DNA of 64,000 bases from Nitrospirota bacterium (GCA_049325335.1 JBMOMC010000001.1:1-64000), one strand, 5' to 3'. Positions 54,393-58,893 are shown, counted from the first letter of the stretch. Numbers and translations are program-made. The notes: generated by a model not told the origin, from the sequence alone.

Positions 54393-55643
54393 CTATTTGT
54401 TCATCGATTCCAGGAATTCACGATTGGTCTTGGTTCCGCGGATCTTGTCGAGCAAGAACTCCATGCTCTCCACCGTGCTGAGTGGGCTGAGCACCTTGCG
54501 GAGGATCCACATCTTATTCAGATCGTCCCGCTCGACCAACAACTCTTCTTTACGGGTGCCGGATAAATTGATGTCGATCGCCGGGAAAATACGCTTGTCC
54601 GCCAGTTTACGGTCCAAGTGTAACTCCATATTGCCGGTGCCCTTGAACTCCTCGAAAATCACGTCGTCCATCCGGCTTCCAGTGTCGATCAAGGCCGTGG
54701 CCATAATGGTCAGGCTTCCGCCGTTCTCGATGTTGCGCGCCGCGCCGAAGAATCGTTTGGGCCGCTGCAACGCGTTGGCGTCCAACCCCCCGGACAGCAC
54801 CTTGCCGCTCGGCGGCGCGATTGTATTGTAGGCACGCGCCAGACGCGTGATGCTGTCGAGCAGGATCACCACGTCACGACGGTGCTCGACCAGCCGCTTG
54901 GCCTTCTCCAGGACCATCTCCGCCACCTGCGCGTGCCGTTGCGGGGGCTCATCGAACGTGGAACTCACGACCTCGGCCTTGACTTGTCGCTGCCAATCGG
55001 TGACTTCTTCCGGCCGTTCGTCGATCAGGAGCACGATCAGCGTGATTTCCGGGTGATTTTTCATGACCGCTTTTGCGATGTTTTGCAGTAACACGGTCTT
55101 CCCGGTACGGGGAGACGCCACGATCAATCCGCGCTGGCCTTTCCCGATCGGCGCCACCAACTCCATCACCCGGGTGGAAATGTCGTCGCCGCCCGGGGCT
55201 TCGAGTCGAACCTTCTCCATCGGATATAGCGGCGTGAGGTTGTCGAACAAAATTTTATCGCGCGCCACTTCCGGATCTTCAAAGTTGATCTTCTCCACTT
55301 TGAGCATCGCGAAGTACCGTTCGCCTTCTTTGGGCGGACGGACTTGGCCCGACACCACGTCGCCGGTGCGCAGGTTAAACCTGCGGATCTGTGACGGCGA
55401 GATATAGATGTCGTCCGGGCCCGGCAGATAGTTGTAATCCGGGGAGCGCAGGAAGCCGAACCCGTCCTGGAGCGTCTCGAGGACCCCTTCGCCGTAAATG
55501 GTCCCGTTCTTCTCCGCCTGCGCCTGAAGGATGGCGAAGATCAACTCCTGCTTGCGCAGATTGCTCGCGCCTTCGATCTTGAGATCCTTGGCGACTTCGT
55601 TGAGGTCGGCGATCGTCTTCTCTTTGAGTTCGCTTAGATTCAT
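54393..55643 (-). CDS. rho: transcription termination factor Rho
   Basis: [39 protein letters not shown]. Confidence 0.98.
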
Positions 55644-55933: not shown

Positions 55934-56116
55934 TTACACGATATCGCGCGCCTTCACCGTCTTGCGGCCGTCGGCGCGCGCGCGTTCGATCGCGTCGAGA
56001 CACATTTTTTCAACGCGCTGACTCAACGCGTCGAGCGTCTCCGCCGATGTATTAAAGTCCGCTTTTTCACGGACCAACCGTTTAATTTTCGACGACACCA
56101 CCAACATCTCCGCCAT
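55934..56116 (-). CDS. bacterial histone-fold protein, Bd0055/HBb-like (60 aa)
   Basis: MAEMLVVSSKIKRLVREKADFNTSAETLDALS...ARADGRKTVKARDIV with RKTV...D motif; GGAGGAGG RBS. Confidence 0.9.
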   Translation of the reverse strand: MAEMLVVSSKIKRLVREKADFNTSAETLDALSQRVEKMCLDAIERARADGRKTVKARDIV

Positions 56117-56150
56117 ACGCGCCTCCTCCCGGGTTTCGTGACTCGTTGCG

Positions 56151-56747
56151 TTACACAAACAGTGAAATATCGCTGCTCGACGCGAATTCCAAAAACGTGG
56201 CCGCGCCGACCGGCTCCTGCAAGCCGTCGATCAAGTCCTCGCGCTTGATGTTCATCATGTCCATCGTCATCTGACAGGGCCACAATTTCACGCCAGACTC
56301 CTTGGCGACGTCCATGAGTTCCGGCAGCGAGGCAATGTGTTTTTGTTTGATGGTCTGCTTCATCATCAATGTGGCGAGTCCCGTCATGCCGGGCAACGCG
56401 CCCACCAAGTTGGGTATCGGCATCGGCATCGCCGGGTTGGCCACCGGCACGAACTTGAGGTTCTCAACCCCGCCCTTTTTGACGATCTGCAACCCGAAAA
56501 ACGTAAAAAACACGCCGACCTCCATATCGAGCGCGGCCGCGGTGGTCGCCAAGATCAACGGAGGGTAGGCCGCGTCCAGCGTGCCCTTGGACGACACAAT
56601 GGCGATCCGCTTCGGTCGGGTCTTGCGCGCTTCGGCGTCGAGCGCCGCCTTCACCTGCGCGCGCACCAGTTCCTCGAGTCGGTGCTCGGCCAACTCCCTG
56701 ACCTTTGCGGCCACCACTTGGTCGAGTTCTTGCGACGTCAATCCCAT
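56151..56747 (-). CDS. DsrE2-family (DsrE/DsrF/DrsH-like) sulfur carrier
   Basis: KGTLD.AYPPLILA, FFTFFGL, WPCQMTMDMM, VGAATFL. Confidence 0.88.
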   Translation of the reverse strand: MGLTSQELDQVVAAKVRELAEHRLEELVRAQVKAALDAEARKTRPKRIAIVSSKGTLDAAYPPLILATTAAALDMEVGVFFTFFGLQIVKKGGVENLKFVPVANPAMPMPIPNLVGALPGMTGLATLMMKQTIKQKHIASLPELMDVAKESGVKLWPCQMTMDMMNIKREDLIDGLQEPVGAATFLEFASSSDISLFV

Positions 56748-56796
56748 GTTCACTCCTCGGCAACCGCCGGACGACGAGCCGAACGGTTGCGCCGGC

Positions 56797-57042
56797 CTAC
56801 TTGGTCTTGCGGATAAAAAACGTGTACACGCCGGGTTCCTCGCGCGTCTCCAGGATTTCGTGTCCCGTGCTCTTGGACCACGCCGCCATATCGGGCTTAG
56901 AGCCCGGATCAGTCGCGATCATTTGGAGCACTTGCCCGAGGGACATCTGTTCAAGCGCCTTCTTGGTTTTGATCACCGGCAGAGGGCAGTTCAGCCCCTT
57001 ACAATCGAGCACTTGCGAAACCGTGTATGCCGCCCCCATCAT
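56797..57042 (-). CDS. tusA: TusA-family sulfurtransferase
   Basis: LDCKGLNCPLP, ATDPGS..D..AW. Confidence 0.92.
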   Translation of the reverse strand: MMGAAYTVSQVLDCKGLNCPLPVIKTKKALEQMSLGQVLQMIATDPGSKPDMAAWSKSTGHEILETREEPGVYTFFIRKTK

Positions 57043-57093
57043 TCGACCTCGGTATGTGTCACGTTCAGTGGACCAATCGATCTCGCGATATCG

Positions 57094-57360
57094 TTACCAC
57101 ACGGTCACGGTCGCGGCATTGACCACCATGCCGGCGATCTCGTCGTACCCGACTTGCCGGTGCGGGGTGGTGATCCCGCGGGCCTGCGCGTCTTCGTCGT
57201 TGACCCAGACCGTCGTCCCGGCGGGCGGCTCCGCGAACACGCCGTCCTGCACCAACACCACGTCCACGGGTGATTCGCGGCCCTGCGCCGCGATCACGGC
57301 CCAAGCCACGTCATCGGCGCGGCGGCGCACGATGTGGAGCGCGCGACCGCCCGTCACCAC
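57094..57360 (-). CDS. DsrH/TusB-like protein
   Basis: VVLVQDGV, EDAQARG, GYDEI, terminal Trp. Confidence 0.78.
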   Translation of the reverse strand: MVTGGRALHIVRRRADDVAWAVIAAQGRESPVDVVLVQDGVFAEPPAGTTVWVNDEDAQARGITTPHRQVGYDEIAGMVVNAATVTVW

Positions 57361-57698
57361 GGAATCACCACATCGGACGCGGCCAGAAGTGCGGTGAGGT
57401 CCGCGCGCTCGATCGGCTGCACGCGGGCGCGCACCCCCCCCCGATACCGGACGGGCAATGCGTCGCGCTCCACCACTTCACGAATATGACACGCATCGAA
57501 CAACTCCAGGGAATCGGTCAAGCCCGGACGCTGAATGCGGTCGCTCTGTAACGCCAACGCCGCGCACGCGCCGTCGCCCGTGTACGCCACGGTCACGCGA
57601 TGATTGGACAATGTCATGCCCAACGCCATACGCAGCGCTTCATGCACCCGTCCCGTGGTCAGCGGGTTGCTCCGAACAGCGACCACGACGTGTTTCAC
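57354..57698 (-). CDS. DsrF/TusC-like protein
   Basis: P.....EALRMALG, YTGDG; overlaps the next gene. Confidence 0.75.
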   Translation of the reverse strand: MKHVVVAVRSNPLTTGRVHEALRMALGMTLSNHRVTVAYTGDGACAALALQSDRIQRPGLTDSLELFDACHIREVVERDALPVRYRGGVRARVQPIERADLTALLAASDVVIPW

Positions 57699-57704
57699 CG
57701 GTGA

Positions 57705-58043
57705 TTACGACCCAAACGCGAGAAATCGATCAGCTCGGTCAACAATCCGGGACAACTCGTACTGGCTGGCAATTTCAGTCCCAGGGTACAGGTCGGCCTC
57801 GGAGAGCCCCCGGGCTTCAGCGGTCACTCCGCACACCGACACCTTGGCCCCCATACTCATCACGGTCGGAAACGCCGTGTACGCCCGCTTGGGCGACGAA
57901 AACGCTTGCGCATGATACACGCCATCACCCATCAAGAACAATTCGACCTCGTGTCCCTCTTTTAACCAGGCCTCGGAGAGCTTCGCCACGAGATAGCCGT
58001 CCTCATAATCGTCGCTACTCGTCAACAACAGGCCGATTTTCAT
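57705..58043 (-). CDS. DsrE/TusD-like protein
   Basis: GHEVELFLMGDGV, VCGVTAEARG (active-site-type Cys). Confidence 0.85.
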   Translation of the reverse strand: MKIGLLLTSSDDYEDGYLVAKLSEAWLKEGHEVELFLMGDGVYHAQAFSSPKRAYTAFPTVMSMGAKVSVCGVTAEARGLSEADLYPGTEIASQYELSRIVDRADRFLAFGS

Positions 58044-58048
58044 GGCAA

Positions 58049-58078
58049 ATTGTATGATGGCCCGAAAACGTTTGTCAA
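58049..58078 (-). promoter_or_regulatory. sigma70 promoter abutting the dsrE-like start codon
   Basis: TTGACA-N18-TACAAT; the -10 box ends 5 nt before the ATG. Confidence 0.6.
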
Positions 58079-58161: not shown

Positions 58162-58893
58162 ATGGCAGCGCAACCGACGTTTCAAGAACAACTCCTACGC
58201 GTGATGGACCGGAAGGACCACTGGGCGTGGAAAGCGTTTTCCAGCGGAGCCGTCACCGTTGACCAACTCAAAATTCACTTTCAGCAAGAATACGTGGTCT
58301 ACGTGCGCGACTTCCCCGTGTTCCTGGCGCGCGTCCACGGGAAAAATCCTCCGATGCCGGTTCGCCGCGCATTGGCGGAAAATCTTTACGAAGAGGAAAC
58401 CGGCGGGCTCACGCGCGGCCGGGCCCACCCGGAAATGTTTTTATATCTGATGGAAGGCCTGAAATTTGCCGCGCGGGACTTCGAGGAGATCCACCTGCTG
58501 CCCGAAAGCGCGGGATACCGACGATGGCTCGACCAAGTCACCGCCGCCGCGTCCTGGATCGAGGGCGCGGCGGTGACCACGATCTTCGTGGAGGGGAGCG
58601 TGCATGAACGCGCGGTCTTCGACGACTCGGTTCGGGAGGAGCCCAACATCGAGCGGAAAATCGCGGAACACCCGTTGGTCAAATACCACGGAGTCCCGCC
58701 CCGTCACTTGGAACTGGCCCGCGCGCACGGCGCCATCGAAGGGCTGCACCGGCGCGACGCGTGGAAGATCGTGTTGGACCACGCCACCACCCCTGAAACG
58801 CAGCAACGCGTGCTCCACGCCATGGAGCGGTCGCTGGAGCTGTGGTTGGCGTATCGGGATGGGGTCGCCAAGGCCTGCGGCATCACCCGATAA
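58162..58893 (+). CDS. heme-oxygenase-like (PqqC/CADD/TenA fold) iron-containing redox enzyme
   Basis: ENLYEEETG...HPE, VEGS, HGAIEGLH candidate di-iron ligands. Confidence 0.8.
   Translation: MAAQPTFQEQLLRVMDRKDHWAWKAFSSGAVTVDQLKIHFQQEYVVYVRDFPVFLARVHGKNPPMPVRRALAENLYEEETGGLTRGRAHPEMFLYLMEGLKFAARDFEEIHLLPESAGYRRWLDQVTAAASWIEGAAVTTIFVEGSVHERAVFDDSVREEPNIERKIAEHPLVKYHGVPPRHLELARAHGAIEGLHRRDAWKIVLDHATTPETQQRVLHAMERSLELWLAYRDGVAKACGITR

Follow-up and report, generated by a model that had tools for sequence, protein, structure and literature searches.

An HBb-type bacterial histone gene behind a DsrEFH-like/TusA/DsrE2-like sulfur-carrier cluster in one family of Nitrospiria

Bacterial histones of the HBb (Bd0055) type from Bdellovibrio bacteriovorus have been solved structurally (PDB 8FVX, 8FW7, 8CMP, 9EZZ, 9F0E) and belong to the 'bacterial dimer' alpha3 histones of Schwab et al. 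2024 (PMC11390915), a category defined by sequence clustering. HBb is abundant, binds DNA and is probably essential (PMC10627809, PMC11317129), while alpha3 histone genes are generally monocistronic (PMC11390915). Sulfur carriers of the Dsr and Tus families, treated in PMC11094781 and PMC12998232, include DsrEFH of the reverse Dsr (rDsr) pathway, TusBCD of the tRNA 2-thiouridine relay and the tusA-dsrE2/dsrE3 sets of sHdr sulfur oxidisers (PMC11094781, PMC4175335). Genes with similar expression needs and without a specific functional link can also be joined in an operon, which has been termed genomic hitchhiking (PMC2588523). Here we describe a 64,000-nucleotide stretch of a Nitrospirota bacterium (GCA_049325335.1 JBMOMC010000001.1:1-64000; the whole stretch is called the window) in which an HBb-type histone gene looks like the last member of a six-gene unit, behind dsrE, dsrF, dsrH, tusA and a dsrE2-like gene. 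The explanation that we find fairly probable is a lineage-specific rearrangement that brought the gene of a nucleoid protein under the control of a strong housekeeping promoter, a case of hitchhiking with no functional link to sulfur.

The product of 56116-55934 (minus strand) was confirmed, by sequence comparison and modelling, as a histone of the known HBb/Bd0055 type. A sequence-only reading of the stretch had noted its likeness to Bd0055/HBb, and this was borne out by phmmer against the HBb chains (E 4e-21), where all 60 residues were aligned and 38 were identical (63%). The C-terminus, RADGRKTVKARDIV, carries the RKTxxxD motif that the reading had pointed to (R51, K52, T53, D58), the D49-R51-D58 clamp is intact and the single Cys is at position 39. 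Eight of the ten DNA-contact residues named for HBb in PMC11317129 are identical and two are conservative replacements (T8S, K16R). The AlphaFold2 model (predicted local distance difference test, pLDDT, 94.6) has helices at 8-19 and 25-48 and a 3-residue C-terminal turn, which is the short alpha2 and truncated alpha3 form of the histone fold, and Foldseek aligned it with five HBb entries at template modelling (TM) scores of 0.91-0.95, the top one 0.95 at 63% identity. A homodimer was predicted with a score of 0.88 against 0.00 for the best control, a contact agreement of 100% and pLDDT of at least 92; the same mark was reached by 20/30 solved homodimers and 1/23 single chains, and as HBb has been solved the pass may reflect this likeness. 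By analogy with HBb, the protein would bind and bend DNA non-specifically as a nucleoid protein, and the genome also encodes four HU/IHF genes. A foreign origin was considered on composition and set aside since the GC content at third codon positions of the gene, 0.73, is unremarkable against a genome mean of 0.78 +/- 0.07. The host differs from those of described bacterial dimer histones, as Nitrospirota are not among the main phyla given in the main-text section of PMC11390915. A second, more distant histone-fold match was seen in several Nitrospiria genomes (L229-L232; G033, G038, G424), some of them in frames of 180-207 aa that are possibly ZZ-type or doublet histones.

Six tightly spaced minus-strand open reading frames (ORFs) were found where the sequence-only reading had placed them, with the histone gene 34 bp after the dsrE2-like gene and with rho and hemG next. 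The features, in the order of transcription, are as follows.

58049-58078, minus strand: sigma-70-like dsrE promoter, TTGACA-18-TACAAT, 11/12 to consensus
57705-58043, minus strand: DsrE-like subunit, 112 aa, single Cys71 (Pfam DsrE E 1.7e-15)
57354-57698, minus strand: DsrF-like subunit, 114 aa (Pfam DsrE E 2.6e-5; TusC model E 1.8e-4, under cut-off)
57094-57360 (alternative start 57357), minus strand: DsrH-like subunit, 87-88 aa, without Cys (Pfam DsrH E 0.008; TusB model E 7e-4, under cut-off)
56797-57042 (alternative start 57039), minus strand: TusA-family sulfur carrier, CPLP motif (Pfam TusA E 1e-24, above cut-off)
56151-56747, minus strand: DsrE2-like sulfur carrier, 198 aa, single Cys158 in WPCQM (Pfam DrsE_2 E 5.7e-51, above cut-off)
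56117-56150, minus strand: dsrE2-histone gap, 34 nt, strong Shine-Dalgarno GGAGGAGG at 56129-56122
55934-56116, minus strand: HBb/Bd0055-type ('bacterial dimer', alpha3) histone, 60 aa, pI 9.4, single copy in the genome
55878-55906, minus strand: sigma-70-like rho promoter, TTGACA-17-TATACT, 11/12 to consensus, beginning 27 nt past the histone stop
54393-55643, minus strand: rho, with its own promoter, 3' neighbour of the histone gene (NCBIfam rho E 1e-214, above cut-off)

The genes of the cluster are separated by 6 nt, a short overlap, about 50 nt, 49 nt and, before the histone gene, 34 nt. No obvious terminator had been noted in this last gap, and the scan agreed: neither a terminator nor a promoter-like site was listed in the 34 nt, which fold no better than shuffled sequences (z +1.17). 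The window was compared with its family, seven genomes from two genera of the class Nitrospiria, and with three metagenome loci that together with these make up a lineage of ten kin loci. The assignment to Nitrospiria is suggested by the names that homologous proteins and loci carry. The dsrE2-histone spacing is 34 nt in 2/10 lineage loci and 82-171 nt in the remaining eight, so the window represents the short extreme.

Judged from these signals, co-transcription of the histone gene with the sulfur-carrier genes is NEVERTHELESS likely because a conserved sigma-70-like promoter lies before dsrE, none was seen before the histone gene and the rho promoter follows it. The dsrE promoter boxes are identical in 7/7 genomes of the family, where no site of at least 9/12 was found from the dsrE start to that of the histone gene, and the site at 58049-58078 would thus serve the whole dsrE-histone unit. 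Only 5-6 nt (5 nt in the window) separate the end of the -10 box from the ATG (58043-58054, minus strand), and a Shine-Dalgarno is missing in all seven genomes, so dsrE is probably a leaderless gene. A slightly weaker version of the promoter, TTGACA-18-GACAAT, precedes dsrE in 3/3 loci of a second family (f10) where no histone follows, which suggests that the dsrE promoter predates the arrival of the histone. The rho promoter was found as an 11-12/12 site in 9/10 lineage loci and marks the probable end of the unit; an intrinsic terminator was not found after the histone gene. The tenth locus (L148) was dropped as a case of sulfur genes kept and rho lost, as about 70 nt past the histone gene the contig switches to unrelated opposite-strand genes (L148:1945-3232), an enolase/septum-initiator-like set which we take to be actinobacterial, and the contig is probably chimeric. 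A leader of about 230 nt (55877-55644, minus strand) lies between the rho promoter and the rho start. Rho limits its own expression by auto-attenuation in E. coli, and such a leader could carry this function.

The histone gene might instead merely neighbour the cluster and be transcribed separately from a non-consensus promoter in the dsrE2 3' end or in the gap. This would agree with the single-gene operons general among alpha3 histones (PMC11390915), and the promoter scan does miss promoters in Bdellovibrionota and in AT-rich Nitrospiria. Across the ten loci, however, the dsrE2 3' end contained no shared sigma-70 site of at least 9/12, sigma-54 site or extended -10, and third-position (synonymous) conservation showed no evident rise, although informative sites were few; the 34-nt gap of the window is mostly ribosome-binding site. 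Histone genes of other families looked different. In a first batch, 14/15 had a site of at least 9/12 within 350 nt (background 4.5% in the window's genome), and in a looser test, from which three loci were excluded for a long N-terminus or too little upstream sequence, a -10 box of at least 5/6 within 150 nt upstream was present in 1/10 lineage loci (background 6%) against 29/40 others (background 25%). The families closest in base composition (f2, f4, f8, f10, f16) had a -10 box in 16/16 loci, unlike this lineage, and the AT-rich dip upstream of the histone gene was absent here (+0.004 in the lineage vs -0.082 in the 40 other loci). Separate transcription also draws on a GC-rich hairpin between dsrE2 and the histone gene, found in 7/10 loci (L028, L029:6255-6354 on the minus strand, L030:5935-6032 on the plus strand, L031, L146-L148; one arm partly degenerate in L148). 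Most relatives have one copy of it, after dsrE2, where it might terminate transcription from upstream, but it lacks a U-tract. Taken together, separate transcription appears rather unlikely.

The same hairpin is a candidate mRNA-processing or stabilising element; it was also considered as a repetitive extragenic palindromic (REP)-like repeat, which was ruled out by its copy number of one per genome in 4/5 relatives and zero in the window's genome. Along the unit, anti-Shine-Dalgarno pairing rises from -2.1 kcal/mol at dsrE to -11.9 kcal/mol at the histone gene, the strongest of 12 genes tested. Under a shared transcript, the histone gene, for which no separate promoter was seen, would be the last one read from the strong dsrE promoter, and high histone output would arise post-transcriptionally through the strongest ribosome-binding site of the unit and, in most relatives, through the hairpin ahead of the histone, which may protect a processed mRNA. 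With this ribosome-binding gradient and the hairpin, a gene for an abundant protein could plausibly sit last in an operon that is otherwise translated modestly.

The pairing of histone and sulfur genes is confined to the window's family. Gene order was the same in 7/7 of its genomes (CADD-like, dsrE, dsrF, dsrH, tusA, dsrE2, histone, rho, hemG, with glmM and eamA beyond), and among 25 metagenome loci the three closest (78-83% identity) carried the cluster while 22 distant ones did not. In a class sample of 401 genomes the histone was found in 50 and was patchy, as most genomes of f1, f2, f7, f10, f14 and f48 have one while it occurred in 0/228 of the largest sampled family (f3) and in 0/84 of f12. 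The flanks of the 43 histone-bearing class genomes outside the family, 40 of which had at least 700 nt upstream, were searched with proteins of the window or with profiles of cluster homologues and contained no dsrE/F/H, tusA, dsrE2 or rho. Among the best 80 of 582 matches in the genome collection, the cluster was present only in the four closest to the query (84-98% identity) and was missing at 12 other Nitrospirota loci and 64 further loci, mostly Bdellovibrionota. The sequence-only reading had looked to synteny across relatives for its proposed tie between the nucleoid protein and sulfur trafficking, and with the adjacency absent outside one family (0/43 class genomes, 0/64 further loci) the comparison went largely against it.

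The sulfur cluster itself is older than the histone pairing, judging by its distribution, as the full five genes also occur in f10 and f6 and tusA-dsrE2 in f2 and f4. The dsrE2 gene is followed by a pyrE-like gene in f10 (4/4 loci, one scanned for identity), by an Rrf2 regulator in f6 (L058-L062; 5/5 loci, 11-25 nt gap, best named match CymR below cut-off, one locus scanned) and by another short gene in f2, DsrE-like by eye and without an NCBIfam hit. As three different genes follow dsrE2 in three families, tight spacing is no proof of function. The histone and the cluster also occur apart: f7 has the histone in 3/3 and a DsrE2 match in 0/3, f6 has DsrE2 in 5/5 and the histone in 0/5, and f3 has DsrE2 in 6/6 and no histone. 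Thus neither an adjacency recurring in distant lineages nor the co-occurrence expected of a functionally coupled neighbourhood was observed. The baseline pair rho-hemG was equally family-restricted (7/7 inside vs 0/20 rho loci outside, some on short contigs), and the histone-cluster pairing, which extends as deep as the ordinary synteny of its neighbourhood, would therefore represent one evolutionary event. Linkage of the histone to rho and to the sulfur genes could not be told apart since both adjacencies are confined to the same family. The rho tree grouped f1 as one clade (100/100) with an unresolved backbone, so that the order of events is not given by the tree. In f10 (L037, L039, L040, L042) the histone gene is tail to tail with proB-obgE-rpmA-rplU, four genes that are found 3-6 kb downstream of it in the window as well; the sulfur cluster may thus be what moved in, next to a histone gene that kept its place.

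These patterns are consistent with a rearrangement, in the ancestor of one Nitrospiria family, that would have put an ordinary HBb-type histone behind an older dsrE-dsrF-dsrH-tusA-dsrE2-like cluster, so that histone and sulfur carriers would share a promoter and not a pathway. The hitchhiking examples of PMC2588523 are widely conserved, whereas this case is confined to one 7-genome family. Several observations weigh against the rearrangement and its shared promoter. A second batch of Nitrospiria histone loci was weaker in the promoter scan, with 9/27 reaching 9/12 and 23/42 overall, and a consensus scan misses real promoters, as 0/60 mostly Bdellovibrionota loci had a site of at least 10/12 although HBb is highly expressed. 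The hairpin is missing from the window's own genome, and the ten lineage loci count as one event. The genome-collection survey covered the best 80 of 582 matches, on which the Bdellovibrionota sample rests. Both genera of the family have retained the arrangement, for which selection of some kind on co-expression is another possible cause.

Alternatively, the shared promoter might respond to sulfur or redox status, so that histone supply and chromosome compaction would track sulfur availability in this family. The arrangement is fixed in 10/10 lineage loci, the family genomes resemble one another in the bases that directly follow the -35 box, and the CymR-like regulator (below cut-off) that ends the f6 cluster hints at regulation somewhere. 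The dsrE promoter is, however, near-consensus and looks constitutive, no operator-like palindrome shared beyond the promoter boxes was seen by eye, and the f6 loci have a different upstream arrangement. A probably essential protein such as HBb (PMC10627809, PMC11317129) would also be ill-suited to a repressible promoter, and DsrA, DsrC and SoxB were not found in the 99%-complete genome, which gives no sign of a sulfur-energy switch. Regulatory coupling therefore seems improbable, and of the co-expression proposed by the sequence-only reading the likely co-transcription stood while the tie to sulfur trafficking was unsupported.

The single Cys of the histone had also been proposed as a persulfidation or redox site, in which case TusA or a DsrE protein would persulfidate Cys39 and tune DNA binding. 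Favouring this, the Cys is conserved, the neighbouring carriers keep conserved cysteines and no DsrC/TusE acceptor for the relay was found in the genome. Yet HBb carries the same Cys39, as do 64/64 mostly Bdellovibrionota loci with sulfur genes nowhere nearby, and among 210 homologues position 39 was Cys in 153, Ala in 18, Leu in 14, Ile in 8, Val in 6, Thr in 5, Ser in 4, Gly in 1 and unaligned in 1. Ala is found there in four f14 genomes. In the dimer model some of the contacts predicted with least error are those of residue 39 with I11, L14, V15 and L31 in the partner chain, and V11 and L31 have been named as hydrophobic-core/interface residues of HBb (PMC11317129). Because it is replaced mainly by Ala, Leu, Ile or Val and contacts the partner chain in the dimer core, Cys39 would be an ancestral, buried packing residue of the predicted dimer, and its direct modification by the carriers is very improbable.

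The sulfur-carrier cluster resembles DsrEFH and TusBCD in its three related small subunits in E-F-H order, the Cys of the E subunit and a nearby tusA. It differs in subunits below the cut-offs, in DsrC/TusE and DsrA not being found and in an E subunit that is closest, among solved chains, to YchN, in which the Cys aligns. As the NCBIfam scores are far below the cut-offs (TusD 23.6/89 bits for the DsrE-like, TusC 21.4/94 for the DsrF-like and TusB 19.7/49 for the DsrH-like subunit) the three are DsrEFH-like rather than canonical. The DsrE2-like protein scored 179.5 bits against an NCBIfam DsrE2 cut-off of 210, with 2QS7, named DsrE2B in PMC11094781, as its nearest solved chain. The Cys71 column of the DsrE-like subunit is invariant in 14/14 homologues, suggesting by analogy a sulfur-carrying role, and the TusA CPxP is kept in 25/25.

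A role in dissimilatory sulfur oxidation (rDsr, Sox or sHdr) was considered and was not supported by the genome scan. DsrC/TusE (PF04358) was not found in the 99%-complete genome, while the control did detect it in E. coli; dsrA had 0 matches above cut-off and soxB none. The cluster is like the sets of sHdr oxidisers in having tusA beside a DsrE2-like gene (PMC11094781, PMC4175335) but differs in that no sHdr cluster was seen in the genome: of three CCG-domain ORFs, the two annotated are part of a succinate dehydrogenase anchor and of a rubrerythrin/GlpC-like/DUF3501 locus, the third being an unannotated 984-aa frame. MnmA is encoded in the genome. The cluster would work like the known relays while falling outside canonical TusBCDE or rDsr by profile and gene content, and may represent a DsrEFH-like/TusA/DsrE2-like relay for biosynthesis or reactive-sulfur handling.

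Other genes of interest included a heme-oxygenase-like, CADD-related redox enzyme at 58162-58893 (plus strand; Pfam Haem_oxygenas_2 E 1.7e-18), divergent from dsrE and syntenic in the family, whose promoter is back-to-back with that of dsrE and overlaps the dsrE -35 box. A distant CADD-like homologue was located near tusA-dsrE2 in one f4 locus, and as a partner for the sulfur relay this enzyme is more plausible than the histone. An 834-aa frame with sulfite-reductase-like domains and a TusA domain (G000:C2:54690-56942, minus strand) is probably an assimilatory sulfite reductase, and two more TusA matches were found on C43 and C7.

The pairing is not known to have been described, as the sequence-only reading remarked, and in our literature searches, mostly of open-access sources, no title or abstract dealt with a histone-DsrE/TusA pairing or with Nitrospirota histones, although the supplements of PMC10627809 and PMC11390915 may list such proteins or their gene neighbourhoods. 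In the main texts of PMC10627809 and PMC11317129 the word 'operon' was absent and a term search did not find discussion of the HBb cysteine.

A bolder view is that a probably essential histone lost its own promoter and relies on that of the sulfur relay, where any sulfur or redox sensing would wire compaction to sulfur; in its boldest form the histone, for example before dimerisation, would be the acceptor of a relay without DsrC/TusE. We regard this as unlikely. A histone level that did follow sulfur status, or a modified Cys39, would connect a bacterial histone to a metabolic signal, a connection absent from the literature that we searched, but the comparative and structural evidence points away from it. 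What the sequence-only reading had found is rather a histone of a known type, correctly identified, whose operon context is probably real and restricted to one family. The locus provides a clean example of an apparently polycistronic HBb-type histone, in contrast to the single-gene rule reported for alpha3 histones, and adds a distribution of HBb-type histones within Nitrospirota.

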